NCBI GenBank assembly: GCA_963626545.1
Contig: CAVFYJ010000002.1
Coordinates: forward strand, 18,263-82,262
DNA length: 64,000 nucleotides
DNA from: Acetatifactor sp.
Lineage (GTDB): Bacteria > Bacillota > Clostridia > Lachnospirales > Lachnospiraceae
Direction of reading: 5' to 3'
A program made the position numbers and the translations under genes. The notes under the pieces were generated by a model. The model saw only the letters and a program-made list of their open reading frames with translations. It ran no database searches and was not told where the DNA came from. This document shows, piece after piece, positions 8,290 to 27,123 of the stretch (positions within the stretch are counted from its first letter, which is position 1; each line of letters opens with the position of its first letter).

Positions 8290-8622
8290 TCAGGGTTTCT
8301 TTTCCGGATTCATTATGTCAAGAAGAGAAGAGTTTTGTTCACTTGAAAATAGATTGATTAGTTGATAAAGAACATTTTTCTGATCAGGCTTAAGTTGACC
8401 AATCTCTATTGATTCAGAACCAGAAATACCAAGAATATAGTCAGAGGTTACATGGAAAATGTGTGTCAGTTCTACAAGGTTTTCAGTAGATGGAGAAGAA
8501 ATTCCCATTTCCCAGGCATTAACACAGGCACGGGTGACGGAAAGCTTTGCGGCAAGAGCTGCTTGGGTGTAACCATTTTTTTCGCGAAGTTCTTTAATAC
8601 GTTCGCTTGTTGATAAAATCAT
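8290..8622 (-). CDS. XRE/Cro-C1 family HTH transcriptional regulator
   Basis: RIKELREKNGYTQAALAAKLSVTRACVNAWEMG HTH_3 pattern; AAAGGAG RBS. Confidence 0.93.
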   Translation of the reverse strand: MILSTSERIKELREKNGYTQAALAAKLSVTRACVNAWEMGISSPSTENLVELTHIFHVTSDYILGISGSESIEIGQLKPDQKNVLYQLINLFSSEQNSSLLDIMNPEKKP

Positions 8623-8708
8623 AATCGACTCGGCTCCTTTTGCAGTCTGATAGTAATTATGTGATATAATATTTACATTTAGTATAACAGATAAGAAGTA
8701 AGAATAAA

Positions 8709-8724
8709 TTATCTTAAATGATAA
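8709..8724. promoter_or_regulatory. Palindromic operator TTATC-N6-GATAA (perfect copy) in the XRE divergent region
   Basis: ttatcttaaatgataa; same motif recurs at three island promoters. Confidence 0.6.
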
Positions 8725-8781
8725 GTATAATATCTAAAAATGGACAAAAACGAAAAGAGGAAAATAAAATGTAAAGCACAA

Positions 8782-8832
8782 ATCTCTTAAAAGATAAAAT
8801 AAATTGACATACCGTATAAACAAGTGTATACT
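8782..8832 (+). promoter_or_regulatory. Island promoter P1 with upstream operator
   Basis: ATCTC-N6-GATAA, 6 nt, TTGACA (8804)-17-TATACT. Confidence 0.75.
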
Positions 8833-8919
8833 TTGGGTAAGAAAATGTCTCTGCGACGTTTCTGAGAAAGGAACGAATTAGACGGTTAGAGAGAATATTT
8901 TAATGATGAGGAGAAAGCA

Positions 8920-9552
8920 ATGGCAAGAGTTTATGTTAGAATGGGTTCGGACAGTACTGGGAGTATTTACTGCAATTCTGATGGAAAGTATATCCGAGTT
9001 GGTGACTCAAGAAGTGACGGAATTATGTACAATATAGATGGAAAGTATATCCGAGAAGGTAATGATGGTAATGGGGAGATTATGTTCAATATTGATGGAA
9101 ATTACATAAGAATAGGAGCTTCTCAAGACGGCGTAATAGGGTATATTATAGACGGAAATTATATTCGGTATGGAGATTATAATGATAGACGCATTGTGTA
9201 TAATCTTACAGAAACGTCTCGAGCATCGGGATGTTTTATAACTACCGCATGCATAAAATCTAGAGGATTGCCTGTAGATTGCTATGAATTGGAAACACTT
9301 AGAAAATTTAGGGATAATTGGGTATCAAAACATGAAAATGGTCCAGCAGAAATAGGTATATATTATGAGATTGCTCCTAAAATTGTAGAAAAATTGGATC
9401 GCCTTTCCAATGCAAAAGAAATCTATGAGCAAATTTATCAAGAGGTAGTCTTGAAATGTGTCCGATTAATTGAAGAAGGAAAGGAGGAAGATGCATATTC
9501 ATTATACAAGAATGCATCTTTCGATCTTAAGAAATATACAGATGCATTGTGA
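8920..9552 (+). CDS. CFI-box-CTERM domain protein with N-terminal 19-aa beta repeats
   Basis: GCFITTAC...CYELETLRKFRD...YYEIAP motif; ~5 repeats of (N/I)(S/I)DG(K/N)YIRxG. Confidence 0.8.
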   Translation: MARVYVRMGSDSTGSIYCNSDGKYIRVGDSRSDGIMYNIDGKYIREGNDGNGEIMFNIDGNYIRIGASQDGVIGYIIDGNYIRYGDYNDRRIVYNLTETSRASGCFITTACIKSRGLPVDCYELETLRKFRDNWVSKHENGPAEIGIYYEIAPKIVEKLDRLSNAKEIYEQIYQEVVLKCVRLIEEGKEEDAYSLYKNASFDLKKYTDAL

Positions 9553-9657
9553 TCAGAGGAATATAAGTTGATGGGATTCGTGTCTAGAATTAGTGAGGTC
9601 ACAAAGTTTGAAATTTAACTAGTTGACAAAATGAAAGGGCAAACAGCAAAATTTGCA

Positions 9658-9708
9658 CTATCAAAAAAGATAAAATAGATTGACATAGAGCAAATCGCGG
9701 TATATAAT
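9658..9708 (+). promoter_or_regulatory. Island promoter P2 with upstream operator
   Basis: CTATC-N6-GATAA, 6 nt, TTGACA (9680)-17-TATAAT. Confidence 0.8.
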
Positions 9709-9756
9709 TTGTCTTAAGAAAGTACTTTTAGCTTTCTGAAGAAAGGAGAATAGAGT

Positions 9757-9927
9757 ATGTTTTTTACAAGAACAGATGTAGCAGAGCTTAACAACTCAGT
9801 AGGAGAAATGCAGAGAAAGTACGGAACCTGTAAATCAGTAAGAATGGCAGAAGCATTTAATAATACCTGTGATAAGTGGGATTGTCCTATTAAATGTTAT
9901 TGTGCTCAATCGGAAAAAGACTCATAA
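9757..9927 (+). CDS. Unannotated 56-aa Cys-rich putative RiPP precursor (MFFTRTDVAELNNSVGEMQRKYGTCKSVRMAEAFNNTCDKWDCPIKCYCAQSEKDS)
   Basis: Translated by hand; AAAGGAG RBS, own promoter, downstream hairpin, directly upstream of radical SAM/SPASM gene. Confidence 0.8.
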   Translation: MFFTRTDVAELNNSVGEMQRKYGTCKSVRMAEAFNNTCDKWDCPIKCYCAQSEKDS

Positions 9928-9935
9928 TTAGGTCT

Positions 9936-10027: not shown

Positions 10028-11176
10028 ATGAAAAAACGAATGCAGATATCACTGATTATTACAGAATCGTGCCCATTAGCATGTAGTTATTGCTATGAAA
10101 TACATAAGGCAAACCAAAAAATGACATTTGAGAAAGCAAAGGAACACATTGACAGAGAATTTGCTGAATTGGATGAAGATGCAGAAATAAATATAGAATT
10201 TTTTGGTGGAGAGCCATTTTTAAATTTTGAATTGATAGAACAAGTGGTAGATTATGTTGAAGAGCAGTATCCGAAACGTATGGTTACATATAATACCACA
10301 ACAAGTGGTGTAATTCTTACAGATCATATTAAGAAATGGTTGTCAGATCATAGAAGACATTTCTATGCAGCATTGTCACTTGATGGTGTTAAGGAAGCAC
10401 ATGATAAGAATCGTGTATTTGCAAGAAACAAAAAGGGCACATTCGATAGCATTGATCAAGAGTTCTTTTTGGAAATGTATCATCCGTTGCCGGTGAAGGC
10501 AACGATTGCACCAAACTGTTTGGAACAAATGGCGGAGAGTGTCATTTATTTGCTAGAAAAAGGATTTCAGGTTGATGCAACTCTGGCAATGGGGGATATT
10601 GATTGGTCGGATTCAAAAAATGTTGATGTTCTTATTAGAGAATTGGATAAACTCATAAAATATTATGGTGAGCATCCAGAAACAGAAGTAATAAGAATGC
10701 TTAATATACCGTTTGAGGCATTATTATTGGAAAAAAAGGAAAATGCAAGGTATTGTGGAGCAGGCCTTAGAATTCATTGCTACACAGGAACAGATGATTA
10801 TTGGACACCTTGTCAAGGATTTTCGAAAATAACGGTAGGACAAGACGTCTCTTTACAATATGCAGGAGAAACTTTTGAGAACTATATTGAACCGGAGTCA
10901 GTATGTAAAAGGTGTCCTTTGAATAATGTCTGTTCAAGATGCTGGGGAACAAATTTGGCAGCGACTGGTTCCATTCATAAACCAGATCCTTGGCTGTGTG
11001 TGATTAATCGTATTATGCTTCAGGCTGGAAGTAAAATTCGTTACGATAAAATAATGAAAAAGCCAAAGGAGGAGTGGGGAGAAGCAGAATATCAGATTTT
11101 AAAATGTATATCAATTATTATGGATGTAGCAGAAAATTCAGATATTGAGTATCTGTCAGATTCGATTGGCAAATAG
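10028..11176 (+). CDS. Radical SAM/SPASM-domain enzyme, probable peptide maturase
   Basis: CPLACSYC (CxxxCxxC), FFGGEPF, SLDG; C-terminal Cys cluster CGAG...PC...CKRC...CSRC...C. Confidence 0.9.
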   Translation: MKKRMQISLIITESCPLACSYCYEIHKANQKMTFEKAKEHIDREFAELDEDAEINIEFFGGEPFLNFELIEQVVDYVEEQYPKRMVTYNTTTSGVILTDHIKKWLSDHRRHFYAALSLDGVKEAHDKNRVFARNKKGTFDSIDQEFFLEMYHPLPVKATIAPNCLEQMAESVIYLLEKGFQVDATLAMGDIDWSDSKNVDVLIRELDKLIKYYGEHPETEVIRMLNIPFEALLLEKKENARYCGAGLRIHCYTGTDDYWTPCQGFSKITVGQDVSLQYAGETFENYIEPESVCKRCPLNNVCSRCWGTNLAATGSIHKPDPWLCVINRIMLQAGSKIRYDKIMKKPKEEWGEAEYQILKCISIIMDVAENSDIEYLSDSIGK

Positions 11177-11263: not shown

Positions 11264-11419
11264 ATGTATGATTTTATAAAAAAATTACAGAGTCAAACTT
11301 ACTCGTCCAAAGAAGCTGCTAATAATCAGATAACAAGAGAAAAAACAAATGGAGCAGGAAAGAAGGCAAGCAATAGTGATCAAAAGATTAGGACTCGTGA
11401 CAACGGTCGTTGTCGATAG
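11264..11419 (+). CDS. Unannotated 51-aa protein (MYDFIKKLQSQTYSSKEAANNQITREKTNGAGKKASNSDQKIRTRDNGRCR), paralog of 15692..15952
   Basis: AGGAGG RBS; stop overlaps RBS of next gene; clear similarity to the 86-aa ORF. Confidence 0.75.
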   Translation: MYDFIKKLQSQTYSSKEAANNQITREKTNGAGKKASNSDQKIRTRDNGRCR

Positions 11420-11428
11420 GAGTGCATT

Positions 11429-12742
11429 ATGCCGATCAACAGAAGAGTAATAGAGGGAAGCAGTGTTTCGCAAAATCCACTGCCTCCTCAAAATTCAAAT
11501 CCGAAGGTGACACTTCAAGGGGAATTTCGAAAGCAAAGAGGAAAATTCTCACTTGATGAAAATATATTAAGTAAGCATACCTTGTTTGTGGGTGGTACTG
11601 GATGTGGAAAAACAACATTATTTTATCATTTTGTAAAGCAATTGCGACAGACGTTGACAAATGATGATGTAATGGTCATTTTTGATAGTAAGGGGGATTT
11701 TCATTCAAAGTTTTTCAGGCAGGGAGACTTTATAATAGGAAATTCTTCTCAATATCAAAAAGAGTCACAGCGCTGGAATATATTCAAGGAGATATTGGCA
11801 GATGGATGGAATGAGAGTGTATATGGATTAAATATTCAGGAAATATGTCGTTCACTTTTTGAAGAAAAAGTAAAACAGAATTCCTCAAATGCATTTTTTC
11901 CCAATGCGGCGAGAGATCTGCTATCATCAATTATAGAGTGTCTCATTCGGGCTGGGGCACGAGATCGCGATACTAGACAAGCTATGTTTTTTAATGATGA
12001 ACTGAGAAAATTACTAGATGGATGTGACATCGATGAGATTTTGGATATCTTAAAGGATTACCCAGACATGAGAGGTGTTATGTCATATATCCAAGATCAA
12101 GGCAGTCAGGCAATGGGTGTTTTAGCGGAGATGTTTTCGGTTGTCAGAGATTTATTTATTGGTATTTTTTCGGACAAAGGATATTTCTCTATGAGGCAAT
12201 TTGTTCGAAATAAAGGTGGAAAGGTATTGTTTATCGAATATGATTTGTCGATTGGTTCTGTATTGACACCAATTTATCGGTTGCTATTTGATCTAGCTCT
12301 CAAAGAAGCATTAGGAAGAAGTTCGGCTCAAAAAGGAAATGTGTATTTGATTTGTGATGAATTTAAATTAATTCCGCATTTACAGCACATAGAGGATGGT
12401 GTCAATTTTGGACGAAGTCTTGGGGTGAAGATCTTTGCAGGACTACAGAGTATTGAGCAGCTTTATGAAATTTACGGAGAAAGTCGTGGAAAAAACATTG
12501 CGGCTGGTTTTTCCTCAATCTTTGCATTTAAAGCAAATGATGTTACAACGAGACGGTATCTTTCAGACTTGTATGGAAGCAATTACACGATCGAACAGTT
12601 TATGATGAATAACCGTTACGAGGAGGAAAAAAGAATTGGTCGAGTGATTGAAGACTGGGATATGTCAAGATTACAGGTTGGTGAAGCGATAGTTTGTCTG
12701 CCATTTACAGAACCCTTTCAATTCAGATTTGATCCATACTAA
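11429..12742 (+). CDS. TrwB/TraD (type IV coupling protein)-like P-loop ATPase, soluble
   Basis: Walker A GGTGCGKT, VIFDSKGDF, Walker B LICDEF, GRSLG, LQSIEQL..IYG motifs; no N-terminal TM. Confidence 0.85.
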   Translation: MPINRRVIEGSSVSQNPLPPQNSNPKVTLQGEFRKQRGKFSLDENILSKHTLFVGGTGCGKTTLFYHFVKQLRQTLTNDDVMVIFDSKGDFHSKFFRQGDFIIGNSSQYQKESQRWNIFKEILADGWNESVYGLNIQEICRSLFEEKVKQNSSNAFFPNAARDLLSSIIECLIRAGARDRDTRQAMFFNDELRKLLDGCDIDEILDILKDYPDMRGVMSYIQDQGSQAMGVLAEMFSVVRDLFIGIFSDKGYFSMRQFVRNKGGKVLFIEYDLSIGSVLTPIYRLLFDLALKEALGRSSAQKGNVYLICDEFKLIPHLQHIEDGVNFGRSLGVKIFAGLQSIEQLYEIYGESRGKNIAAGFSSIFAFKANDVTTRRYLSDLYGSNYTIEQFMMNNRYEEEKRIGRVIEDWDMSRLQVGEAIVCLPFTEPFQFRFDPY

Positions 12743-12764
12743 GCACAAAAGAAGGGAGGATATT

Positions 12765-13754
12765 ATGTGCGAGGAATTTTATCGGACACACTTGCCCAAA
12801 ATACAACAGCACCTATATAAAGTAATATACCATGAGCTACTGCGATGTAATAAACAAATTTCTGTTTGTGGTTCATTGGAGACTATAAAAAGTATTTATG
12901 AGGCTGTGTTAGATGATCATCCGGAATTATTCTTCGTGGATACATCAAGAGTCACATTTTCTTATGGAACATATTTCTGTATAATCACCGTTAGATATGT
13001 GTATTCAAAAGAACAAATACAGAAAATAAATACAGTAATACAGCAAGGGATTGACGGTGTTGCACAAAAGGCATGTAGGGAAAATAGCACAGCTGTAATG
13101 GTTATAAAATATATTCATGATTATATAATCAGAACGGTGCGTTATGATATGGAATCGTTTGAACGAGGAGTAACACAGATTGAAAACCAAAATATTGTTG
13201 GTGTATTTTTAAATCATAAGGCAGTATGTGAAGGTATTGCAAAAAGTGTACAGCTTCTCTTAAACAGGTGTGGGATTTTGTGCAGCCTTGTAAAGGGAAA
13301 GTTAGTGACAACTTTGAGAAAATCTGATCACGCATGGAACATCGTGAACATAGACGGAAAATGGTATCATTTGGATGTTACGTTGGATATCGGAATGTCA
13401 CAACAAAATCCATTGTATATTGGATATGATTATTTCAATCTAGATGATAAAACGATAAAAAGGGATCACGATGAGTATCAGCTTCCGGTAAAATGTGAAG
13501 GTTATCAGTATAATTATTTTCATATAGCCAAAGCAGCGATTGACGACATCATGTATCTGGAACGCTATTTGGGCGTAGGAATAGATCGAAAGTATAAACG
13601 CCTGTACTTTCAAGTTCAGTCGGATGGAATACGAGAAGAAATAGTAGAACAGATGATTCAAAAGAAATTATCCAACACGACGGCATATGGCAGTGTGCGT
13701 TGGACAATTCGAAAGAATGAATATCAAAAGATTTATGAAATTCGATTGGAGTGA
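12765..13754 (+). CDS. Transglutaminase-like cysteine protease/transferase (start ATG 12765)
   Basis: AVCEGIAK, HAWNIV, HLDVT catalytic Cys-His-Asp triad; GGGAGG RBS. Confidence 0.85.
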   Translation: MCEEFYRTHLPKIQQHLYKVIYHELLRCNKQISVCGSLETIKSIYEAVLDDHPELFFVDTSRVTFSYGTYFCIITVRYVYSKEQIQKINTVIQQGIDGVAQKACRENSTAVMVIKYIHDYIIRTVRYDMESFERGVTQIENQNIVGVFLNHKAVCEGIAKSVQLLLNRCGILCSLVKGKLVTTLRKSDHAWNIVNIDGKWYHLDVTLDIGMSQQNPLYIGYDYFNLDDKTIKRDHDEYQLPVKCEGYQYNYFHIAKAAIDDIMYLERYLGVGIDRKYKRLYFQVQSDGIREEIVEQMIQKKLSNTTAYGSVRWTIRKNEYQKIYEIRLE

Positions 13755-13758
13755 TTGT

Positions 13759-14166
13759 ATGAATGAGCATTGGGGAGAAAAGTGGAAACTGGAACGTTAT
13801 CTGCAGACAATTCGGTTGGATTATGATGAGGATATCTGGGAAGAAATTCGACAATATTGTTGGAAGCTTTTTTCAAAAAAGTCGGTTACTCAGGAGGAGT
13901 TGCATTTACTAGTAAGTTTGCTTAGTAGAAAATCGAAAAGAAAAATGGTGGCAGAACCAACCGAATGGGAAGATCAGATTTTAGATAATCAAGATAATAC
14001 TGTTCAGAAAGATTGTTGGAAGTACGAGGAAGAAGATACCATGATTCGAAAAATAATGTTGGGCAGAGTTCAGTTTGAACTTTATCTTCTATTTGAAGGC
14101 TTTTTGCCGGAGAGAGAATGTAATGTTCGAAAAAATAAAAAAGAACGCTCATGGAGCCGAATATAA
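13759..14166 (+). CDS. Hypothetical protein (start ATG 13759)
   Basis: GGAGTGA RBS; tightly packed in operon. Confidence 0.6.
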   Translation: MNEHWGEKWKLERYLQTIRLDYDEDIWEEIRQYCWKLFSKKSVTQEELHLLVSLLSRKSKRKMVAEPTEWEDQILDNQDNTVQKDCWKYEEEDTMIRKIMLGRVQFELYLLFEGFLPERECNVRKNKKERSWSRI

Positions 14167-14187: not shown

Positions 14188-15522
14188 ATGCTTCGATTAA
14201 TTTTTATGTTGATTGTTCAACTGTTGAATCTATTTTTTGCGTTGCTGCGGGGAATATGGAACGGGACATGTGGACTGATTAATCTTTTGACTGGAAATAC
14301 GGTAGAGGGAAGAAATCAAAGAAGAAAAGGAATTAAAGAATATCAACCTTCTGAAATTGGTGGTTTCTTTCAGGAAAATGATGATTTGGATAATATGATT
14401 ATTTCAGGTGGAACAAAAGAAAAGCGAGTAGAAGCAATGGAAGCATATATTAATTTGAGCTGCTATTGTGATAGTGCAGTATTGATTCTCCACGCAAATG
14501 ATTATGAACTGGAAAAGACAATTGAGCAAAAATACGGAGGCACAGGACGGCTTGTTATCATCAATGGAAAAAATCCATGTTTTGACCCATTTTATGGATT
14601 GAGTTCGAAAGAGATTGGCCAGTTGATAAAAGAGTCAGCTGATAAGGATGATGACATGAGGGCAAATGTATTAACATATTTGGATGGTTTGACTGAGTAT
14701 CTTTATGCAAAGAAAGTAAAGCCAAGTTATGAACTGTTTCAGACATGTCCATACATGGCACTATATCAGAAAACAGATGATTTAGTTGCAAGACAAGTGA
14801 TTACATTAGATCAGGGAGATCGCATTAAATCAAAGCTTATGGCAGGACAGTCGGAATATTATAAGCTGGAATCTTATTTTTCAACGTTAGACAGTCAGAT
14901 GGGAGATATTGCTTACAGAAGAGGCTATGGAAACTCTCCTATTAATCTAAGTGATGAGATGAAGAATAAAAAGATTGTATTGATTAATGTGGGAATGGAT
15001 AGTAATCGTCTGCTGCTTGATCTGATTCTTGCTAGAATGAAACAATTAAATGGACAGCGAATTGCATTTGCTTGTATTATAGATGAGCTTTCTGTTTCTG
15101 ATAATCCGAAACTAGAGAATTGGTTAAAAGGTGCTTCTGATACTTGCAAGCGAGTGATAAGTGCAACCGATGTATATGCAATGTGTAGTGCAGATGAAAG
15201 GCTATTTAATGCATTACTGGGAAATAGCAGAAATAATGTAATATTTAAACATACATCTGCATCAAGTGCAAAAAAATGGTCAGAAGCGATCGGATATTAT
15301 GAAAAAGAAGAAGTGTCAACAAATGTAAGTCATGGAAAGAATTATTCACCATATTCACTCTTCCCAGGTAGCAGTACAAGCAGCGGAAGCAGTATTTCGA
15401 TGAAGCAGGAGTATATTGTAAAACCGGAAGAGATCCTTAGAATGGACAACAATGAAGTTTATATCTATAAAGGTGCTACAAGTGAGCTGATACATACAAG
15501 GCTGGTAAAGCGTATTAATTAG
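14188..15522 (+). CDS. Degenerate TraD/TraG-like ATPase with N-terminal membrane anchor
   Basis: Hydrophobic N-terminus; degenerate P-loop IISGGTKEKR; CIIDEL; TraG-D_C-like SAKKWSEAIG...VKPEEILRM. Confidence 0.65.
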   Translation: MLRLIFMLIVQLLNLFFALLRGIWNGTCGLINLLTGNTVEGRNQRRKGIKEYQPSEIGGFFQENDDLDNMIISGGTKEKRVEAMEAYINLSCYCDSAVLILHANDYELEKTIEQKYGGTGRLVIINGKNPCFDPFYGLSSKEIGQLIKESADKDDDMRANVLTYLDGLTEYLYAKKVKPSYELFQTCPYMALYQKTDDLVARQVITLDQGDRIKSKLMAGQSEYYKLESYFSTLDSQMGDIAYRRGYGNSPINLSDEMKNKKIVLINVGMDSNRLLLDLILARMKQLNGQRIAFACIIDELSVSDNPKLENWLKGASDTCKRVISATDVYAMCSADERLFNALLGNSRNNVIFKHTSASSAKKWSEAIGYYEKEEVSTNVSHGKNYSPYSLFPGSSTSSGSSISMKQEYIVKPEEILRMDNNEVYIYKGATSELIHTRLVKRIN

Positions 15523-15530
15523 TTTATTTT

Positions 15531-15568
15531 AAAGAGTTCAATCATTTTATTATGAGAGAACTCTTTTT
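15531..15568 (+). terminator. Intrinsic terminator
   Basis: aaagagttc...gaactcttttt. Confidence 0.7.
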
Positions 15569-15602: not shown

Positions 15603-15653
15603 TTATCCAAAAAGATAAAATAAATTGACATGGTTTGCAAATATAGTTATACT
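15603..15653 (+). promoter_or_regulatory. Island promoter P3 with upstream operator
   Basis: TTATC-N6-GATAA, 6 nt, TTGACA (15625)-17-TATACT. Confidence 0.8.
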
Positions 15654-15691: not shown

Positions 15692-15952
15692 ATGTTTGAC
15701 TTTAAAAAAAAAAGAGAAGAATTAAGCCAGAAGGCTACACAGAAAAATACACAAACAAAAAGTAATAGTGTTCAAAATGAAAATAGTCAAGGAGGATCTA
15801 TAGGAAATAGTTTAAAGAAATGGGTCAACTCGTCAGAAGAGATTGCTGATAATGACATAAAAGACAAAACTGAAGCGCAAAAAACAAGCGGTGCCAGTAA
15901 CAGTGATCCAAAGATTAGAGAGCACAAGCATAGCCATGGGCATGGTTTATAG
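15692..15952 (+). CDS. Small hydrophilic protein with basic/His-rich tail
   Basis: AAAGGAGG RBS, own promoter; paralog of 11264..11419. Confidence 0.8.
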   Translation: MFDFKKKREELSQKATQKNTQTKSNSVQNENSQGGSIGNSLKKWVNSSEEIADNDIKDKTEAQKTSGASNSDPKIREHKHSHGHGL

Positions 15953-18318: not shown

Positions 18319-19848
18319 ATGTCAAATTATCAAGCTTTTTCTGCTTCCGTGCAGGGAGCTTCGCATGTGAAGAAAAAGATTGTCATGCAGGATGCTTCAG
18401 GCAATTTTGAAGATGAAAAGGTAAAACTAATTGCATTATCAGATGGGCATGGCGATTCCAGTTGCTTCCGCAGTGATCGAGGTTCTAGATTGATCGTAGA
18501 TGTTGGAATAGCTGAATTGAAAGCATTTGCCGAGGAAATGGATGGAAAGGAATGCGAACTGGACGATGAGAAAAGTAGAGAAATTCGAATCAGACAGTTG
18601 ATTCGCAGAATACTGGCAAACTGGAATATTGAAGTGGAAAAAGATTTGGAAAATAATCCGGTTTCAGAAGAAGAGTATCAGATATGCAGCGATGAAACGA
18701 TCAGGCAGGCATACAAAAATGGAAGTAAGCAAAATGGAATGTACGGTGCTACCTTTATTGCGGTATTGCTAACTGATACATATGTATTGGCACTGCATCA
18801 AGGGGATGGCAGATGTTTGATGATAGACCGAAAGGGTGAAGTTATATATCCAATTCCATGGGATGAACGGTGTCAGGGAAGAAATACAACCTCGGTGTGC
18901 AATAGTGATGCGGCAGAATCAACACGATATTATTATGCAAGATTGGATGAACAAGATTGTCCTGCTGCTTTTTTTATGGCTTCTGATGGTATTGAGGATT
19001 CGTATCGTACACTAGAACTATCACAATGCTTTTATAAAGATTTGTGTGAAAAGTTGGTAATGGATGGGAAAGAAGAGACGACCCAGTGGTTGCTAAATGA
19101 ACAGTTGTATAAAGTTAGTTCGATAGGCAGTGGAGATGATATGTCAGTTGCTGGGATATTTGATACAGAAGCATTAAAGGCATTGACTCCAACTATGCAA
19201 AAGAAATACGATCAGCTTGCTTGGGAAGAAAAAGCAAGAAATGCAAAAGAACATTTGGATTCTATGCAGGGCAAAAGAAAGTATTTAAGAAAAAGATATG
19301 AAGAAGCACTGGCAAGAGGAGAGAAAGTAAATAATGTCCAGACGGACGAAACGAAATTAGAGGCAGAGAAAGCACGCAAGGTGGCTTTATACGAGGAATT
19401 AGAAAAGGCTGCATCACAGATTCATTTGTTAGAAGAGACACTCCAAAAACTTCGTGCTCATAAAGCAAAATATGAAAAAATAGAGGCTGAGTATAAAGAA
19501 TGTGAACAGACGCTTCATGCAATGGAAGAATGTGGAGACAGTCAAAAAAGATTTACGCATGAGCTGCAGCAGATTTCAAAAGAATATCAGGAATATGAAG
19601 AACGGTATCAAAACTGTCTGAATGCATATGATACAGCGATGGCAGAGGCAGATCGACTTCAAAATGAACAAAACCTACTTAAAGACAAAAAAGTAAACAA
19701 AGAAGCTGATACAGAGGTAACAGATGAAAGTGCAGCTGCAAAAGAAGCTGAAGAAGATGATTTTGCCCCAATGATTGATGAAGAAGAAAAGAAAATTGCA
19801 CTTCAAAAAAAGGCAATTGATGATTATATAAAAGATACACTGATGTAA
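18319..19848 (+). CDS. PP2C-family protein phosphatase with C-terminal coiled coil
   Basis: SVQGASH..QDA, ALSDGHG, QGDGR, ASDGIEDS, GDDMS. Confidence 0.9.
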   Translation: MSNYQAFSASVQGASHVKKKIVMQDASGNFEDEKVKLIALSDGHGDSSCFRSDRGSRLIVDVGIAELKAFAEEMDGKECELDDEKSREIRIRQLIRRILANWNIEVEKDLENNPVSEEEYQICSDETIRQAYKNGSKQNGMYGATFIAVLLTDTYVLALHQGDGRCLMIDRKGEVIYPIPWDERCQGRNTTSVCNSDAAESTRYYYARLDEQDCPAAFFMASDGIEDSYRTLELSQCFYKDLCEKLVMDGKEETTQWLLNEQLYKVSSIGSGDDMSVAGIFDTEALKALTPTMQKKYDQLAWEEKARNAKEHLDSMQGKRKYLRKRYEEALARGEKVNNVQTDETKLEAEKARKVALYEELEKAASQIHLLEETLQKLRAHKAKYEKIEAEYKECEQTLHAMEECGDSQKRFTHELQQISKEYQEYEERYQNCLNAYDTAMAEADRLQNEQNLLKDKKVNKEADTEVTDESAAAKEAEEDDFAPMIDEEEKKIALQKKAIDDYIKDTLM

Positions 19849-19864: not shown

Positions 19865-20989
19865 ATGTCGGATATTGATAGAATAGGAGAGGAACTGCAA
19901 AAACGAGTTCTTCAGGATGGTATCATTTTTTTGGAACAGGAAGGAAAGCTGAATGGAATATTAGCTGATATGTTTCCAGAGTTAAAGAAAGAACGCAGAT
20001 GGGTTCGGATGGCAATGGAAAGTGGAATAGGAAAAACATTCAGTCGAATTGCTTCCTGTACCAACGAAAATGAAAAACAAAATTTATATCAGCAGATAAA
20101 AGCGCAGATTGAAGACGATGGTCTGGCGGATATTGCGATTGGATATGTCCTAGAGGCATTTTGTTATGCAATTGATTGGAATGCAAATACAGAAAAAAAA
20201 GAAAGGTTTGTTGAAAATTCTGTATATAATGAGTGGTCACAAAGTCCACAGTCTCATGCAATGGAAAATAATTCGGATAGACCGAGGAAAACATTGGGGG
20301 CAACTACAAATGCAGATATTGTATTTGTAATTGATGCAACAGATAGTATGTCTCCTATTCTAAATACGGTTAAAAACTTTACCATGTCTCTGCATGAAAA
20401 AGTAATACAGGGATTGCAGCAGTATCATCGTAAAATAAAACAGCTTAGAGTAAAGGTAATTGCCTTCAGAGATTATTATTGCGATGGGTATATGTCGCTT
20501 CAGGAGTCTCCATTTTTTTATCTTCCAGAGGATAATGAGAGATTTAAGGATTTTGTAACTAGGATAGAAGCGAAGGGCGGCGGAGATGAACCAGAAAGTG
20601 GATTGGAAGCATTAGCAGTAGCAATGCGTTCTGATTGGGAGAAGACTGGAACTTCAAAACGTCATGCAATCGTATTGTTTACGGATGCAGCGGCACATCC
20701 GCTTGAGCAGCAAAGATATGGAATTCCTGAAAATTATCCATCACCTATGTTAAAGTCGTATGAGGATCTGATGAGAGCATGGGATGGAGAAATGTATGGA
20801 ATGGAAGAATGCTATAATATGGATCGAAATGCAAGAAGATTGATTTTATTTACACCTGATACGGCTCCATGGAATCGAATTCGAGATAATTTTGATGTTA
20901 CAGTGTGGAATCCAACGATGAGAGATCGCGGTGGAGCAGAATTAAACATGGATTTGATTATTAATACGCTGTGTAAATCATTGAAATAA
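19865..20989 (+). CDS. vWA domain protein with N-terminal helical adaptor-like domain
   Basis: DIVFVIDATDSM, GGGDEPESGLEAL, VLFTDA. Confidence 0.87.
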   Translation: MSDIDRIGEELQKRVLQDGIIFLEQEGKLNGILADMFPELKKERRWVRMAMESGIGKTFSRIASCTNENEKQNLYQQIKAQIEDDGLADIAIGYVLEAFCYAIDWNANTEKKERFVENSVYNEWSQSPQSHAMENNSDRPRKTLGATTNADIVFVIDATDSMSPILNTVKNFTMSLHEKVIQGLQQYHRKIKQLRVKVIAFRDYYCDGYMSLQESPFFYLPEDNERFKDFVTRIEAKGGGDEPESGLEALAVAMRSDWEKTGTSKRHAIVLFTDAAAHPLEQQRYGIPENYPSPMLKSYEDLMRAWDGEMYGMEECYNMDRNARRLILFTPDTAPWNRIRDNFDVTVWNPTMRDRGGAELNMDLIINTLCKSLK

Positions 20990-21001: not shown

Positions 21002-22756
21002 ATGGAATATGGAAAAATAACACCTTTCACAGTACATTGTGCGGCTGTTTCTGATGAAGATGCACCACCAGAAGCAAACGAAAAATTTCTGATCGTATGC
21101 GATGGGCTAGGAGGAACTGGTCAGACAAAGCATAAAATTGGTGACCAATATTTTACTAGTGCTTATATTGGCTCAAGATGTGTAAGCGATGCTGTCAAAA
21201 AATATTGCGAAGATCGTAAGGGAGAATTGTGGAATGAAGATATAGCCATGATTACCAAAAAATTAAAAGATTATTTGGCATTGCGATTGGAGGAATGCAT
21301 TCAGAGCTATCACCTTGAAAAAACGTTAAAGGGCAATATGATTGAATTACTTCCGACAACATTGGCTATGGCTGTTTTTCGAAAGAACGGAAGTTTTCTT
21401 GATGTGCGCGTGATTTGGGCAGGAGATTCAAGAATATATCTTTTGACCCCTACAGATGGGCTTTCACAGTTATCTGTGGATGATGTAGATGGAAACTTTG
21501 ATGCAATGCGAGCATTGGGGCAATCGAATATGAATAATAATGTAACTGGTGAGGGAGTTGATCGGTTCCATTTGAATTATGCCGAGTACAAAATTCCGAT
21601 AAAGGATGGTTTGATTTTGTTTGCTGCGTCGGATGGCTGTTTTGATTATATTTCATCTCCAATGTGGTTTGAATATAAGCTACTAACAGCAGTTCGAGGT
21701 GTGTTTGATGATAGTCCATCTACTTTAGGGGAATGTATTGCAGATAATTATCAGGGAGAAAATTGCAAGGATGACACAACAATAGCAGGTATTGTGATTC
21801 AGTGGAATGAAGAGAAAAGCATTCGTGAGCTGTATCGAACAAGAGTCCTTTACATGAATGAAAATTTTCGCAATCCTTTTCGAAATGTAGTTGGAGATCA
21901 AAGCATCAGGGAGGAAGATTTAGATCAGAAGAAAACAGATTTGAATAGACGATTCAGTCTAATTGAAGCAGAACTTATAAAAGCAACAATCACATTTTTG
22001 CGACAACCAGTATGGTTTGATATGCAGCAAGAACTGAAAAGTCGTATTTTAAAGATGGATTGTCTGGCAAATTATTTTCTTGCACGGACTCAGTGCAAGG
22101 AAGAATTGCGGAAAAAACAACAAGAATTGCAAATAGAGACGTCAGAGAAAAAGAAAGATGAGCAGTCTTTAAATCGCTTGATTGAATACTATATGAAAAA
22201 TTATATTCAGAGATTGGAAATTCCACAGAAGAAAATCCTTTTCTGGGATAAAAAAAGAGATCCAATTTGTGAGATGGTTGAAAGATATAGAGAGCTGGCA
22301 AGGTCTCAGAAAAATGAAGAGAACGCTGACGAAATGACGAATAGAAACATGAACCAGCTGTATCAGAAAATTCAAAATCAATTGGAGCAGTCAGGCGAAC
22401 TTGATCGTGTACGTATGCAAAGCAATGAAATTGAAAGTATGCAGCGTCATGATTTAAATATTGCACGCTTAAGAGAGGAAATAAAGAGTTTACAAAGAGG
22501 ACAGGACATTGAACAGTATATAAACGGAATCAGAAAAAAATTCTGTTTGGAATGTTTGTATGTGTTTGGAATGGAGCGCATTCTTAATCAGGAGGTAAAA
22601 CAAGAGTTTTTGAAACTTCAGTCCGATTTTAAGTGTATAGAAGATCTGCAATATGAATATGAAAAGAACCAAAATTGGGAAAATTTATTTTGGCAGGATC
22701 ATTATAAAGAAAAATATGAAAAATATAGACTAGCAAAGAGTCTGGGGAAGGTATGA
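21002..22756 (+). CDS. PP2C-like phosphatase with C-terminal coiled coil
   Basis: EDA, VCDGLGG, PTTLA, WAGDSR, ASDGCFD, KDDTT. Confidence 0.87.
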   Translation: MEYGKITPFTVHCAAVSDEDAPPEANEKFLIVCDGLGGTGQTKHKIGDQYFTSAYIGSRCVSDAVKKYCEDRKGELWNEDIAMITKKLKDYLALRLEECIQSYHLEKTLKGNMIELLPTTLAMAVFRKNGSFLDVRVIWAGDSRIYLLTPTDGLSQLSVDDVDGNFDAMRALGQSNMNNNVTGEGVDRFHLNYAEYKIPIKDGLILFAASDGCFDYISSPMWFEYKLLTAVRGVFDDSPSTLGECIADNYQGENCKDDTTIAGIVIQWNEEKSIRELYRTRVLYMNENFRNPFRNVVGDQSIREEDLDQKKTDLNRRFSLIEAELIKATITFLRQPVWFDMQQELKSRILKMDCLANYFLARTQCKEELRKKQQELQIETSEKKKDEQSLNRLIEYYMKNYIQRLEIPQKKILFWDKKRDPICEMVERYRELARSQKNEENADEMTNRNMNQLYQKIQNQLEQSGELDRVRMQSNEIESMQRHDLNIARLREEIKSLQRGQDIEQYINGIRKKFCLECLYVFGMERILNQEVKQEFLKLQSDFKCIEDLQYEYEKNQNWENLFWQDHYKEKYEKYRLAKSLGKV

Positions 22757-23976
22757 TGGCAGAAATAATAGAGGGATATCATTGTCAAGGAAATTGGCAG
22801 ACGGCGGCAAATGGTGATTATATTTTTGCTGAGAAAAATGGAAGAGAATTCTTTTTAAAGCGATTTCAAGAACCAAAATATCCAGAGGAAAGTTTGAGTG
22901 CTGAGTTTCGTGATAAAAAGATACAAAGATGTGAGCAATTTAGTCAGGAACGAAGAAAAATTATTGTGGCATTGCAGCAAGTTTCAATGGGAAATGGAAA
23001 CATACTGACCCCGCAGGAATTTTTTTTAAGTAAGCCGTATTATTATCAGGCAAGTTTGAAAAGTAGTGAACAGGAGGCAACAATCTCTGAGATCGTAAAG
23101 CTTCCAGAAGAAAAGCGAATGTTATTGATAAAAACACTCTGCATGGATCTGATGAAAATTCACAGTGCGAAGATTGTACACGGTGATTTGAAACCAGATA
23201 ATATATTGATTTCAAGATCAAAAAGTGGCGAGTTAGTCTGTAAATTGATTGATTTTGATGATTCGTATTTTTCACAGCATCCGCCACTGCCGGGTGATAC
23301 AATGGGAACAGAGGAATATTGGAGTCCTGAATTGGCAGAGTACAAGGTAACAGAAGATGCATCTTTGGCATCTAAAATTACATGTCAGTCTGATGTTTTT
23401 GCGTTAGGATTGATTTTACATGAGTATTGTACTGGAAAATTACCGGATACACATGGTGGTGGAAATGCATACGAGTATGTGTATGAAGGTGGGGTTTTGA
23501 CAGCAGATAAAAGCATTAAATCAGAAAAGTTGCGAAAGCTGATCAACTCAATGCTGCTGTTTGAACCGAGTGAGCGCCCAACAAGCAAAGAAATTGTTGA
23601 GCAGTTAACGGGAATACAAAAAAAATATTATATAGTTGATGTGGAGAGTACGCAGGGAGGTATTGCACTAGTAAATGAAAAGCCATTTTTAAAGGTAACA
23701 GAGAAAGATATATTAAATTTTTCAGCGGAACCAATAAAAGGATATCGTTTTTTATATTGGGAGTGCAATGGGATTCAAAAAGAAGAGTCTGTACTTCGGA
23801 TAAGAACAACTCAAGATTTATCAGTAAAGGCTTTTTTTGAAAAAATAGAAGAGTCAGAAGATGATGATTTTGTAACGCTCATCCCGTTAGAGAACGATAA
23901 GCTAAAAGCAGTATTTCCAGACAATACCGCCCAGATTTTGGATACGGCAACTGCGAAAATATTGGGATGGATTTAA
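22753..23976 (+). CDS. Ser/Thr protein kinase with C-terminal InlB-B-repeat-like beta domain
   Basis: FFLKRF, HGDLKPDNIL, IDFD, GTEEYWSPE, SDVFALG; AEPIKGYRFLYW...VKAFF. Confidence 0.9.
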   Translation: MMAEIIEGYHCQGNWQTAANGDYIFAEKNGREFFLKRFQEPKYPEESLSAEFRDKKIQRCEQFSQERRKIIVALQQVSMGNGNILTPQEFFLSKPYYYQASLKSSEQEATISEIVKLPEEKRMLLIKTLCMDLMKIHSAKIVHGDLKPDNILISRSKSGELVCKLIDFDDSYFSQHPPLPGDTMGTEEYWSPELAEYKVTEDASLASKITCQSDVFALGLILHEYCTGKLPDTHGGGNAYEYVYEGGVLTADKSIKSEKLRKLINSMLLFEPSERPTSKEIVEQLTGIQKKYYIVDVESTQGGIALVNEKPFLKVTEKDILNFSAEPIKGYRFLYWECNGIQKEESVLRIRTTQDLSVKAFFEKIEESEDDDFVTLIPLENDKLKAVFPDNTAQILDTATAKILGWI

Positions 23977-23988: not shown

Positions 23989-24762
23989 ATGTGGTATTGG
24001 ACATGTGATAAATGCAATCACGAGAATCCGTGCATCAATGATACCTGTGAACTATGCAAAGAAAAATGGAGCGTACAAAATGCTGCGGAGATGAAAAGGG
24101 TAATTGGAACAAAACAGACAGAGATAGCAGAAACAAAAAAGAAAATTGCAATTGATAAAGTAAATCAAACTAGGGAGAAACAAAAAAGATTTAAGGTGGA
24201 AAAACGTAGACTACAGTCAGCAACATTTTATGTTCAGATGATGAGATTCATGAAAATAGCATCCATCGCAATCGTGCCAGTTGCTATATGTGGAATATTG
24301 TTTTTCTGTTTCAATTTGTTTGGGTTGAAGAAAGAACTGTTTTGGCTTTTTCAAGGAGTGCTAATCGTTGCAAATGGAATTGCGTTCGCTGCGATTTTGA
24401 TGATGTTTGGCTATTCAGTTGTCAATAATTTTACAAAACATTCAATAGTTACGACGACAACGATAAATGGTTATATTGCTGAATGTAGAATTTTGGGAGT
24501 GATTTCAGCTATTATTGCTTATTTTTGCTTGCCGGGAAAAACAGCAGTCGAAATGATTTCACTTTATCAGGTGTTGTCTATAAGCAGCAGGGTTGTCGGA
24601 ATGATATGGATTGTTTTCGGGATACTGAATCTTTTGATCACAGCGGTAGCAATACTTTGTAAAAGAAAAAAGGCAAGGATTGAATTGTTGGATGGAACAA
24701 GAATTCCAGCATTTGTGGTAGGAGCATTATTCTTTTGGATGGCTGGATTGTTTGCAATATAA
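23989..24762 (+). CDS. Membrane protein with N-terminal RanBP2-type zinc finger
   Basis: W-x-C-x2-C-x3-N-x6-C-x2-C (WTCDKCNHENPCINDTCELC); coiled coil; ~5 hydrophobic helices. Confidence 0.75.
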   Translation: MWYWTCDKCNHENPCINDTCELCKEKWSVQNAAEMKRVIGTKQTEIAETKKKIAIDKVNQTREKQKRFKVEKRRLQSATFYVQMMRFMKIASIAIVPVAICGILFFCFNLFGLKKELFWLFQGVLIVANGIAFAAILMMFGYSVVNNFTKHSIVTTTTINGYIAECRILGVISAIIAYFCLPGKTAVEMISLYQVLSISSRVVGMIWIVFGILNLLITAVAILCKRKKARIELLDGTRIPAFVVGALFFWMAGLFAI

Positions 24763-24789
24763 ATTTATGGACAAATATATGACGAAAGG

Positions 24790-25158
24790 ATGGTAGAAAA
24801 AATGGCAAGACATGAAGCAGTTTTTATGGATATTACATGTAGTGTGTACAAGCAAAAGTTTTATCTGCGCTATGATTATGCAGCAGATGATATGTGGGTG
24901 TTGACATATGGAGTAAAAGAAAAGGAGCGTTCGACTCAAATGATAGGATCGAGTCAAAGCATTGATATGTCGCAGACTAGAACCGGTCCGCAATATAGAT
25001 GCCCATATTGTGGAAATATCCATATTGTTAAATGTGGAGCTTGCGGCCAACTAGTATGTCATGACGAATCGGATCGTTTTCAGTGCATATGTGGACACAG
25101 AGGTACAATTACTGGAAGAATTCGAACAGTATCTGGTTATACGGGAAAAGCACAGTAG
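24790..25158 (+). CDS. TerY-C-type metal-binding domain protein
   Basis: CPYCGN...KCGACGQLVC...CICG Cys pattern in TerY-P context. Confidence 0.75.
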   Translation: MVEKMARHEAVFMDITCSVYKQKFYLRYDYAADDMWVLTYGVKEKERSTQMIGSSQSIDMSQTRTGPQYRCPYCGNIHIVKCGACGQLVCHDESDRFQCICGHRGTITGRIRTVSGYTGKAQ

Positions 25159-25239
25159 CACAAGAATGGGAGGAGTCGGCATGATATCCTCCCGTTTTGC
25201 TAATAGAGAATTGTGGCTGGTAAATGAGAGGAAAAAGAG

Positions 25240-26634
25240 ATGAAAAAAACAACGGGAGATATAATTGCACAGATTTGTCAAAGCAAGGGCATGAAAGTAC
25301 TGGAAAAAGAACAGACTGCAACAATGGCATTTGCAATGGAAACAACAAAGCTAAAACGACAAAAAGAATTGCTAAAGGGATTGTACAAATCAGATGAAAT
25401 GAAACATTTGATAGAGGCAGCGGACAAAGATGAGGCAGAAAAACGAGTTGCGCTTCTTGCAGCGAAGGAAAGTCTTTTGAAACAAAAGATATGTATTGAT
25501 CAGATGGAGGCAGTCATATTTGTGAATGAGATCGCAAAGGGATTCTCATGGAATTTAGGATTGCCATATCCGGAAACAATGAAAAGAAAAACAAAAGAAA
25601 CAATAAGTTGGAAAGATCTTCCCCTTTCAAGAATAAAAAAGATGGCAGAGGACGGAAATGGGGAAGCACAGTTTTACCTTGGAAAATGCTATTTTAATGG
25701 ATATCGAGAGAATGCGCCATTACATGCTGTAAAGAAATGGCTGAGGATTATCAAAAATGGATATATAGGAATTAGGAGTGAATTCACAATGATAGATAGT
25801 GCAGATATGGCTGAACTTTGGTTTCATGAGGCACTCAAAAGCGGAGTAGAGGAAGCTTATGGATATAAGGGAGAGATCTATCGGATAAATAAAATGGAGT
25901 ACAAAACCGCCATTTCCTTATATAGGAAAGGCATGCAACATGGGTATATTTTTGCAACACGTGGATATGCGATTTGCAGATTGTATGGAATTGGGATTGA
26001 ACCAAATGAAATAGAAGCTAGAAAAATGTTGGAAGAATTAGTAGAAAATGGGGATGCCTTATCAATGTATTGGATGGCCAGATTGTACCAAGAAGGTCTA
26101 GGGGGATGCGAAGCAAATGGTGAAAAAGCAATTGAGTGGTGCAAGCGTGCGATTGAAAAAAAGATGAGAGGAACTTATTCAATATGGGGAGATTGCTATG
26201 CAGATGGTGAAGGGGGGATAAAGCAAGATTATAAAAAGGCGGTAAAGATCTACCGAAAAGGAACCTTACATGGTGGGAACAGCTCTGTATACAGGTTGGC
26301 ACGCTGCTATTACTTTGGACAAGGAGTAACAAAAAATAAAAATAAGGCATTGCGTTTGTTTAAGTTAGCCGCATCGTGGGGAAATGTACAGGCTATGGCG
26401 GTTGTGGGACAGATGTGTTATGAGGCGGATGGTGTAATAAGAGATTATCCAAGCGCAATTAAGTATTTTACAAGAGCAGCTGATCGAGGAGATACTGCCG
26501 CTATGAGATACCTTGTAGAAGCATATAGAGATGGAGTAGGAGTTAAGAAAAATACAGATGAAGCATTAAAATGGTTTCACAAGGCAGAAGAATATGAAGC
26601 AAAAGAGGCGGAACTGGAAAAAGAAAGCAATTGA
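25240..26634 (+). CDS. Sel1-like repeat protein with N-terminal helical domain
   Basis: Multiple Sel1 repeats (AQFYLGKCYFNG, LARCYYFGQGV, AMRYLVEAYRDGVGV). Confidence 0.88.
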   Translation: MKKTTGDIIAQICQSKGMKVLEKEQTATMAFAMETTKLKRQKELLKGLYKSDEMKHLIEAADKDEAEKRVALLAAKESLLKQKICIDQMEAVIFVNEIAKGFSWNLGLPYPETMKRKTKETISWKDLPLSRIKKMAEDGNGEAQFYLGKCYFNGYRENAPLHAVKKWLRIIKNGYIGIRSEFTMIDSADMAELWFHEALKSGVEEAYGYKGEIYRINKMEYKTAISLYRKGMQHGYIFATRGYAICRLYGIGIEPNEIEARKMLEELVENGDALSMYWMARLYQEGLGGCEANGEKAIEWCKRAIEKKMRGTYSIWGDCYADGEGGIKQDYKKAVKIYRKGTLHGGNSSVYRLARCYYFGQGVTKNKNKALRLFKLAASWGNVQAMAVVGQMCYEADGVIRDYPSAIKYFTRAADRGDTAAMRYLVEAYRDGVGVKKNTDEALKWFHKAEEYEAKEAELEKESN

Positions 26635-26639
26635 TTTAA

Positions 26640-26683
26640 AAAGATTGCGTATTTTTAGTAAAAAACTAAAATACGCAATCTTT
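26640..26683. terminator. Bidirectional terminator
   Basis: aaagattgcgtatttt(t)ag / ctaaaatacgcaatcttt between convergent genes. Confidence 0.8.
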
Positions 26684-26694
26684 ACTGGAATATG

Positions 26695-27123
26695 TTAAGA
26701 AACAGAACGACAGTCTAACAGTTTAGGATAAACCGCATCACATATTTTTGCAGCAACAAGGCAAAGATTCATACATGTTTTGCCAACAATACCCGACTGA
26801 ATAAAGGCGTCAATAAAGACATCTACTGTATTTTGGTCTGTATTTAGACAGAAGCGGACGAAGCGGTATGTATTATTGAAGGTATTGATCAGTGATAAAA
26901 CTGTATTTTGGGAAATAGAAGAAACTTGAAATAGATTCCAGATACGGATATAAACAACCTGATTGTTGGAATCAAAAATAAGGTGAACGTTAAAATTAGA
27001 CAGTGTATCGCCAGTGATTTTTATAGAGATCTGGTCATTTCCGCTTTGTGTGTTTTCCTCTATACAGTAATGAATTTTATATTGCTTTAAAAACTCAGTA
27101 AATTCTTTTGTTGTGTTTAGCAT
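26695..27123 (-). CDS. YbjN/T3SS-chaperone-like domain protein
   Basis: LSLINTFNNTYRFVRFCLN...DA pattern typical of YbjN; size 142 aa. Confidence 0.7.
   Translation of the reverse strand: MLNTTKEFTEFLKQYKIHYCIEENTQSGNDQISIKITGDTLSNFNVHLIFDSNNQVVYIRIWNLFQVSSISQNTVLSLINTFNNTYRFVRFCLNTDQNTVDVFIDAFIQSGIVGKTCMNLCLVAAKICDAVYPKLLDCRSVS

Follow-up and report, generated by a model that had tools for sequence, protein, structure and literature searches.

A TerY-P Kinase-Phosphatase Module beside an Apparently Undescribed Coupling-ATPase and Tailed-Cargo Unit in an Acquired Island of Acetatifactor sp.

Composition and Borders of the Island

The window analysed here, a 64,000-nucleotide stretch of contig CAVFYJ010000002.1 from a draft genome of Acetatifactor sp. 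(96.6% complete, 195 contigs), carries at positions 8290-27123 a block of 20 genes with a coding fraction of 93%, including three small open reading frames (ORFs) of 56, 51 and 86 residues. Searches against Pfam and NCBIfam recognise two TrwB_AAD_bind domains, two kinases, two vWA, two PP2C_2, Transglut_core, Radical_SAM, Bflower_3 with a CFI-box, Sel1 and HTH_3. With high confidence, this island is a composite of two modules and some passengers: a pair of coupling-protein-like ATPases with tailed cargo (module A), an extended TerY-P phosphorylation module (module B) and passenger genes (module C). It thus unites a known kinase-phosphatase defence switch with a coupling-ATPase/tailed-cargo unit that is apparently undescribed. 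Genes and promoters lie on the + strand unless otherwise stated.

The guanine-cytosine (GC) content of the island is 36.6% against 44.5% for the genome, and only 3 of 258 genomic windows of 18.8 kb are equally low. The left border is a bidirectional terminator-like hairpin (8237..8291; fold -25 kcal/mol) with an A-tract on its 5' side and a T-tract on its 3' side. A second terminator-like hairpin (26640..26682) separates the convergent Sel1 and YbjN genes, the latter thus lying outside. Both hairpins are strong; a terminator scan missed them. Comparison with congeners supports acquisition of the island at a hotspot beside the PEPCK gene. For example, the order PEPCK-up150-dn132-GdpP in congener G001 (L158) represents the empty site, and PEPCK directly adjoins dn132 in congeners G009 and G002. 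In congener G007 (L159 2646-19768), the same site holds another conflict island with two Hsp70-like genes, a HerA-type ATPase, a YezG-like immunity gene and a transglutaminase. At the DNA level, a search of 60 relatives yielded short matches but no island copy. The 604-residue orphan gene located between PEPCK and the island (5875-7689), which has no Pfam match and is absent from the congeners examined, is a separate insertion at this hotspot.

The island genes are probably under one type of promoter and operator. Promoters P1 (8789..8832, near-consensus sigma70), P2 (9665..9708, 12/12 consensus) and P3 (included with a candidate operator in 15603..15653, downstream of a hairpin at about 15531-15567) share a 21-mer that has just three copies in the 3.4-Mb assembly, up to 2 mismatches being allowed. 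With 11, 12 and 11 of 12 positions matched, their sigma70 sites (8804, 9680, 15625) rank as the best three among 80 matches, a total that is not above that of shuffled sequence (70.7 ± 8.9). P2 drives the peptide and radical SAM genes and probably the ATPase genes too. A divergent XRE-type helix-turn-helix (HTH) regulator (8290..8622, - strand; Pfam HTH_3, E 1e-13; 97% identity in sister loci) is a candidate controller of the three promoters. Its putative operator is the palindrome TTATC-N6-GATAA found at 8709..8724, with a second perfect copy at 15603 and degenerate copies immediately upstream of P1 and P2; it overlaps the upstream elements of the three promoters. Sister loci each carry several copies (up to 6), mostly at matching promoters. 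Since the palindrome is not enriched genome-wide (10 matches versus 2-12 with other spacers), this operator role is proposed as a candidate one.

The initial annotation of this DNA had described a tightly packed, AT-richer block of about 19 genes bounded by bidirectional terminators, with three near-identical promoters, a double kinase/vWA/PP2C module and no integrase, relaxase or VirB genes. The density, the base composition, the promoters and the double module are all borne out; the count rises to 20 with the small ORFs, and the left terminator stands while the right one excludes the YbjN gene. The 21 window proteins scanned with Pfam and NCBIfam include no integrase, relaxase or VirB protein. 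The search for an empty site that it had suggested gave the congeners cited above, and PADLOC returned only generic kinase, ATPase, HTH and radical SAM matches on the island.

The Coupling-ATPase Pair of Module A

The surroundings of ATP1, the first ATPase gene, were compared in 22 genome loci, 80 of 487 metagenome matches, 2 loci from a viral collection and further genomes. These loci were grouped at 85% ATP1 identity into 43 clusters, single linkage placing 58 loci in one of them. Twenty-two clusters are fully flanked, 15 with an ATP1 at least 50% identical to that of the window and 7 below 50%. The flanks extend 10 kb around ATP1, which leaves the positions of KinB, the membrane protein and YbjN outside.

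ATP1 (11429..12742) is a TrwB/VirD4-like ATPase (TrwB_AAD_bind, E 6e-42; TrwB as best PDB match) with intact Walker A and B motifs. It has no hydrophobic segment, hence no membrane anchor. Its mean column identity is 70% over 19 homologues, and its closest named relatives belong to Blautia, which points to a probable host in the Lachnospiraceae. The family is large, with 394 clusters at 50% identity (E up to 1e-30). Among the best 150 of these clusters, 119 members are full length; 112 of the 119 keep Walker A and only 2 show an N-terminal hydrophobic segment.

ATP2 (14188..15522) is a TrwB-fold paralogue without Walker A, a motif lost in 13 aligned copies, and begins with a hydrophobic or amphipathic helix. 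Its model (confidence score pLDDT 89.6) matches TrwB and Cag-beta over the full length with Foldseek (E 1e-11). The ATP2 profile had no match among PDB sequences and only the structure model linked it to ATP1. This model, together with weak Pfam matches, suggests that ATP1 and ATP2 are kin. The pair, judged from its sequence motifs, is predicted to consist of one active and one dead coupling protein, which the initial annotation had missed. ATP2 is found in 17 of the 22 fully flanked clusters. In a distant clade that includes Paenibacillus and Curtobacterium plasmids, a conserved small membrane protein with 2-3 transmembrane segments takes its place.

The window genome harbours a second copy of module A in another AT-rich block (G000:C16:1623-15907, L129), whose ATP1 is 25% identical. 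This copy comprises a tailed 250-residue cargo of unassigned domain, ATP1 and an ATP2-like gene, with two kinase-like WD40 proteins of about 1,650 residues and a PP2C on the opposite strand.

Tailed Cargo, Toxins and Immunity Genes

What lies directly upstream of ATP1 varies greatly between loci: a gene for an HNH nuclease (Tox-GHH, Tox-HHH), for a zincin-like protein (a label based on an HExxH motif, without Pfam match), for unassigned domains or for a tail alone. In relatives, a SUKH immunity gene lies directly upstream of the HNH toxin in 14 cases out of 14, and a conserved small gene directly upstream of the zincin-like toxin in 6 out of 7. A TNT-like cargo family (Atlas score 0.93, a lead only) is usually encoded downstream of ATP1.

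All 30 distinct toxin-domain proteins of the ATP1 loci end in a polar tail, which is found in 150 of the 3,682 ORFs of the window genome taken as background. Under a strict rule, which was derived from these same sequences and then fixed before a held-out test, the gene upstream of ATP1 passes in 16 of 41 clusters versus 8 of the 3,682 background ORFs; under a relaxed, post hoc rule, it passes in 21 of 41 versus 17. As a positive control, the MobA/MobL relaxase of the window genome passes the strict rule. The relaxed one is passed by 9 of 163 ORFs from conjugative regions. The control relaxase comes from a small mobilisable element that also carries an integrase-like gene (G000:C37, L130 5040-11121). 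Most of the sister-locus peptides terminate in Arg-Gly-Leu. PMC8740702 (in excerpt) describes type IV signals with Arg and small or hydrophobic residues at the end, and a VirF that requires its terminal Arg-Gly-Leu. A basic form and an acidic/hydrophobic form of such signals are known (PMC8740702 and PMC10025392, in excerpt).

In the window, the slot of these tailed polymorphic toxins is filled by what the initial annotation called small paralogous peptides. One of them, pep51 (11264..11419), is a toxin-less tailed cargo located 9 nt before ATP1, a shortened relative of the 88-residue peptide of sister loci; its paralogue pep86 (15692..15952; repeat D20) is a second one.

Cargo proteins show other features. 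A short Phe/Leu plus Lys motif opens the toxin-less cargo and some toxins (window 11264-11290 and 15692-15720; L011-L014, L115, L120); it resembles a membrane-targeting helix. In L120 (1894-4692) and L123 (2107-4221), the cargo reaches 932 and 704 residues, mostly repetitive acidic or Gly/Ala/Gln/Lys linkers that join payload to tail.

The Extended TerY-P Module

The island has two triads of adjacent genes, in both of which the catalytic motifs are present and which correspond to the definition of a TerY-P triad. The first one, which belongs to module B, consists of KinA (16100..17386), a TerY-P-type Ser/Thr kinase whose Zn ribbon has four invariant Cys, the TerY-like vWA1 (17398..18195; metal ion-dependent adhesion site, MIDAS, DxSxS) and PP2Ca (18319..19848; PP2C_2, E 9e-26), a phosphatase with catalytic Asp motifs and a coiled-coil tail. 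The second one, counted among the passengers, consists of vWA2 (19865..20989), in which an adaptor domain is fused to a vWA with a variant MIDAS (DxTxS), PP2Cb (21002..22756) and KinB (22753..23976; Pkinase, E 8e-24). A low-complexity tail with Trp as its last residue closes the TerY-like vWA proteins (window 17398-18195; L144, L147, L152, L154).

The second triad is followed by a membrane protein with about five hydrophobic segments (23989..24762), which has no homologue in the loci fetched, and by a TerY-C-like metal-binding protein (24790..25158). The latter matches TerY_C weakly (E 0.003, below cut-off), and its homologues score up to E 1e-10. Next comes a candidate sensor that joins the adaptor domain (hidden Markov model, HMM, E 4e-20) to Sel1 repeats (25240..26634; Sel1, E 8e-41). 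A cytoplasmic transglutaminase-like thiol enzyme (12729..13754) is encoded within the ATPase region; its triad Cys167-His201-Asp216 is invariant across 14 homologues.

The adaptor domain, common to the vWA2 and Sel1 proteins, is N-terminal and has about 110 residues forming seven helices (model pLDDT 92). Its HMM matches only 2 of 3,948 ORFs of the window genome, both in the island. About 90 distinct adaptor-bearing proteins are found in the ATP1 loci, with fusions to DUF6273, LRR, RCC1, Sel1, TPR, MORN or vWA. The domain has no Pfam match and no convincing PDB match by sequence or fold, its best structural match (Z 6.1, root-mean-square deviation 3.6, 84 residues aligned) being below the chance level for helical bundles. 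In the Atlas, it hits only unnamed clusters at a score of at least 0.9, which is not proof of a new fold. Reverse transcriptase genes, some with bAvd, are located beside adaptor-bearing DUF6273 genes in L016, L017, L021, L081 and L106; these are candidate sensors diversified by diversity-generating retroelements (DGRs), of which we take DUF6273 to be a target.

Furthermore, 16 triad loci were found that have neither ATP1 nor ATP2 within the flanks fetched. Among them, 14 encode the adaptor, 9 the transglutaminase and 6 TerY-C. Because the transglutaminase and TerY-C both accompany the triad without the ATPases, they belong to the triad module. Their neighbours are TerD genes, BREX, a MoxR-like ATPase or, next to the same kinase family in L142, FtsK together with an HNH toxin. 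The triad lies beside BREX in 5 of the 16 according to gene size and order, with Pfam confirmation for L151. In L151-L154 and L156, the extended module (adaptor-LRR, kinase, vWA, PP2C, TerY-C, transglutaminase) directly follows BREX pglZ-brxL. The extra members of module B were not found described in the literature searched.

Linkage of the Modules and Passenger Genes

The initial annotation had inferred that its gene set acts as one system. In part this is supported: a recurrent set is formed by the TrwB-like pair, the small peptides, the transglutaminase and the first triad, the latter accompanying ATP1 in 13 of the 15 fully flanked clusters with at least 50% ATP1 identity. The expected partnership with TerY-C also stands in that this protein travels with the triad, the window match itself being weak. 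In contrast, only 2 of these 15 clusters contain the window-type radical SAM gene, and 1 has a stand-alone CFI-box gene. Below 50% ATP1 identity, the triad is found in none of the 7 fully flanked clusters. Among 400 other genomes of the family, the triad kinase is present in 16, ATP1 in 8 and both in 1; because only four candidates were scored per genome, a depth at which the C16 copy escaped, distant ATP1s are undercounted. Modules A and B are thus linked in one ATPase subclade only, and a single system of this whole composition is not supported.

The radical SAM/peptide pair, the CFI-box gene and the second triad are passengers, and YbjN is a putative one. The beta-flower plus CFI-box-CTERM protein (8920..9552; Bflower_3, E 4e-16; NF041770 above cut-off) was seen only in sister loci, with one fused copy in L031. 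A 56-residue Cys-rich precursor (9757..9927), probable substrate of a passenger system for ribosomally synthesised and post-translationally modified peptides (RiPPs), carries CX3D and CX3E motifs, which we assign to the PapB-type ranthipeptide kind; its copies in sister loci are 36-98% identical. The adjacent radical SAM/SPASM maturase (10028..11176; CxxxCxxC at residue 15) has PapB and TIGR04115 as nearest models, both below cut-off (the PapB-type NF047865 gives 148.8 bits and requires 340). Only sister loci contained vWA2 and PP2Cb, and these loci rearrange or add peptide, CFI, radical SAM and TerY-C cassettes. YbjN (26695..27123, - strand) scores 21.3 bits, just below the cut-off of 22.

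Unrelated RiPP maturases are found inside such islands: a radical SAM enzyme in L012 (7000-8648) as well as in L013, PqqD plus radical SAM in L098 (3021-4425), LanM in L099 (7573-10749) and a second radical SAM enzyme in L034 (7682-9013). A small protein without Pfam match (13687..14166) is 45-47% identical in sister loci only. It looks like a member of a 130-residue family whose HMM did not recover it, and no homology is claimed.

Proposed Mechanism and Alternatives

In the best mechanism, which we hold with slightly less than even confidence, the ATPase pair would recruit tailed toxins for export through a borrowed type IV channel. Taking up the observed composition, catalytic states, toxin-immunity order and tails, we infer that ATP1 and ATP2 could form a mixed ring at the membrane, the N-terminal helix of ATP2 substituting for the missing anchor. 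The ring would read the C-terminal tail of the cargo, like VirD4-family proteins, then unfold the toxins and feed them to a type IV channel that some conjugative element, already resident or arriving, would provide in trans. Products of the upstream immunity genes would shield the cell that makes the toxins. Gating of the ATPases may, in this subclade, fall to the kinase/phosphatase switch, which would receive input from adaptor-linked Sel1, LRR and DUF6273 sensors. In the window, the cargo has shrunk to toxin-less stubs (decoys, tethers or relics), which probably leaves this copy disarmed as a weapon; because its cargo is toxin-less, the output of the island may be purely regulatory or vestigial.

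Export draws support from the intact Walker motifs and strong conservation of ATP1, the TrwB/Cag-beta fold of ATP2, the tails and upstream immunity genes, the layout shared with Xanthomonas effectors and the C16 copy of the module. Several results weigh against it. Neither channel genes nor VirB4 were found in the ATP1 loci, and the draft window genome has no VirB4 and no other VirD4. In favour of export, VirB4 scores above cut-off in 13 of 21 carrier genomes versus 37 of 101 in a family sample, but this excess is modest and confounded by mobile-DNA load, relatedness and the deeper scoring of carriers; furthermore, VirB4 is missing above cut-off in 8 of the 21 carriers, the window genome among them. 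No toxin domain is recognisable in the window, where both cargo genes are stubs, and the TNT-like cargo has no recognised immunity gene. The profile-profile comparison of ATP1 and ATP2 is not significant (probability 0.4%). ATP1 is tied to the triad in a single subclade only. As for the tail, 11 new and more distant loci were held out, of which 2 start at a contig edge and 9 could be evaluated. None of the 9 passes the strict rule and 5 pass the relaxed one only, their tails being polar and mostly acidic, with Gly and a hydrophobic residue at the end; the relaxed rule also catches TerY vWA tails. Therefore, the polar tail appears to be general and its exact terminal motif clade-specific, as far as these sequences indicate.

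The strongest alternative, although an unlikely one, is an intracellular suicide or dormancy switch: an invader would be sensed, TerY-P would activate the ring and the toxin would be threaded by its tail and stripped of its immunity protein in the same cell. Such a switch needs no channel, in keeping with loci devoid of channel genes and a window genome devoid of VirB4. Its sensors would be the cytoplasmic adaptor fusions, and the same triad module stands beside BREX in the ATPase-less loci cited above. TerY-P is reported to be active against T7-like phages (PMC7699616, in excerpt), and FtsK- or VirB4-like ATPases without membrane segments, linked to CoCoNuTs, adjoin TerY vWA genes (PMC11090510, in excerpt). 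However, swappable toxin domains with cognate SUKH immunity typify exported polymorphic toxins in the available parts of PMC3482391, and the tails match those of exported substrates. Moreover, distant clades lack the triad, and a toxin-less copy such as that of the window would have no effector.

It is improbable that all 20 genes, including the radical SAM/peptide pair, the CFI-box gene and both triads, form one co-regulated defence or stress system, as the initial annotation proposed. One promoter/operator type does precede each unit in the window and in sister loci, and other RiPP enzymes recur in islands (L012/L013, L098, L099). Nevertheless, the assortment described above, with sister loci that shuffle or add cassettes, a triad and a transglutaminase that occur without the ATPases and a single genome in 400 with both triad and ATP1, largely refutes this idea.

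A similarly small chance is given to a remnant or accessory of a mobilisable element, in which ATP1 would couple DNA and the tailed genes would stand for proteins transferred along with it or for what is left of a relaxase. The TrwB family is indeed a conjugation family, conjugative or mobilisable fragments lie at most 10 kb away in L028, L032, L088 and L114, and the Curtobacterium copy is near ssb and NlpC/P60 genes on a megaplasmid. Against this, the window has no relaxase, integrase or VirB4, all 8 plasmid matches are typed non-mobilizable, and strong conservation and toxin-immunity pairs speak against decay. In a quick tree, the ATP1 clade is apart from four VirD4s of integrative and conjugative elements (ICEs), but long branches meet there. 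All other explanations combined seem less likely still.

Export through a borrowed channel would have wider consequences. It may be, though we regard it as somewhat less probable than not, that module A represents a new toxin-delivery class, common across Bacillota and extending to Actinomycetota, with a ring of active and dead coupling ATPases, type IV-like C-terminal signals and a non-encoded channel (hijacked from conjugative elements or other), gated by TerY-P in one subclade, some of its adaptor-linked sensors standing beside DGR genes. If so, antagonism based on coupling proteins would extend to gut Clostridia and conjugative elements could be parasitised as weapons. If the toxins act inside the cell, a toxin-antitoxin switch driven by a threading ATPase would be the outcome. 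On either reading, the poorly understood TerY-P switch acquires a tangible candidate for its output, and the partners that had been missing are defined as a thiol enzyme plus a new adaptor domain.

Comparison with Known Systems

Module A looks undescribed: no description was found in the literature searched, although primary TerY-P papers or their supplements may mention this ATPase context. No paper combining TerY with TrwB was found, none of those listed for VirD4 speaks of an orphan one, and VirD4 and TrwB are not mentioned in the available parts of PMC7159879, PMC11090510 and PMC3482391. Judging by titles, the literature on TrwB_AAD_bind concerns plasmids and mobile elements.

In the standard survey of polymorphic toxins, the classical ones are said not to rely on type IV secretion (PMC3482391, in excerpt). 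The exception in the literature consulted is the Gram-negative, bactericidal type IV secretion system of Xanthomonadales (X-T4SS; PMC7777525 and PMC8740702, in excerpt). Its Xanthomonas effectors have an upstream immunity gene, an N-terminal toxin and a C-terminal signal (PMC7777525, in excerpt). As in the VirD4/X-Tfe/X-Tfi set of that system, module A has a VirD4-family ATPase, N-terminal toxin domains, immunity genes directly upstream in relatives and disordered polar tails ending in Arg, small and hydrophobic residues. Unlike it, module A has no linked VirB channel and no membrane anchor on the ATPase, and possesses a dead paralogue. Furthermore, its toxins are of cytoplasm-acting types (HNH, zincin-like, TNT-like), its hosts are mostly Bacillota and a phospho-switch is attached. 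The cargo proteins scanned with Pfam gave no match to XVIPCD, the presence of that model in the library being unconfirmed. By analogy, module A would work like the Xanthomonas set, but it fails membership because it has neither channel nor anchor.

The passenger maturase resembles PapB-type ranthipeptide systems in that a radical SAM/SPASM enzyme lies beside a Cys-rich precursor. It differs in being far under the NCBIfam cut-off, in having no N-terminal recognition domain and in the lack of an exporter in the island.

The adaptor recalls the NTP-dependent conflict systems (PMC7159879, in excerpt) that combine effector-associated domains with DGRs: they too have a shared small helical adaptor on variable sensors, and they contain vWA proteins. 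Reverse transcriptase plus bAvd in some loci and double-GTPase/Hsp70 units in neighbouring ones add to the likeness. However, the adaptor has no Pfam counterpart, and the role of the NTPase falls to a coupling-protein pair.

Module B shares with the TerY-P triad (Anantharaman 2012 and Gao 2020, as cited in the available parts of PMC11090510, PMC4978471 and PMC7699616) the MIDAS vWA, the PP2C and the Zn-ribbon Ser/Thr kinase. It also shares TerY-C and a position beside Ter, BREX or FtsK/toxin genes. It adds a conserved thiol transglutaminase and adaptor-fused sensors, and its ATPase partner is VirD4-like rather than FtsK/WXG100. A secretion-type ATPase without membrane segments in a TerY-P locus is also seen in the minimal type VII-like FtsK/WXG100 units and in the ATPase extensions of Type III-A CoCoNuTs (PMC4978471 and PMC11090510, in excerpt). 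The island differs from both in its ATPase family, in its tail-type cargo and in having no McrBC core. By this analogy, the union of TerY-P with module A would parallel that of TerY-P with FtsK/WXG100, as the available parts of these two papers present it.

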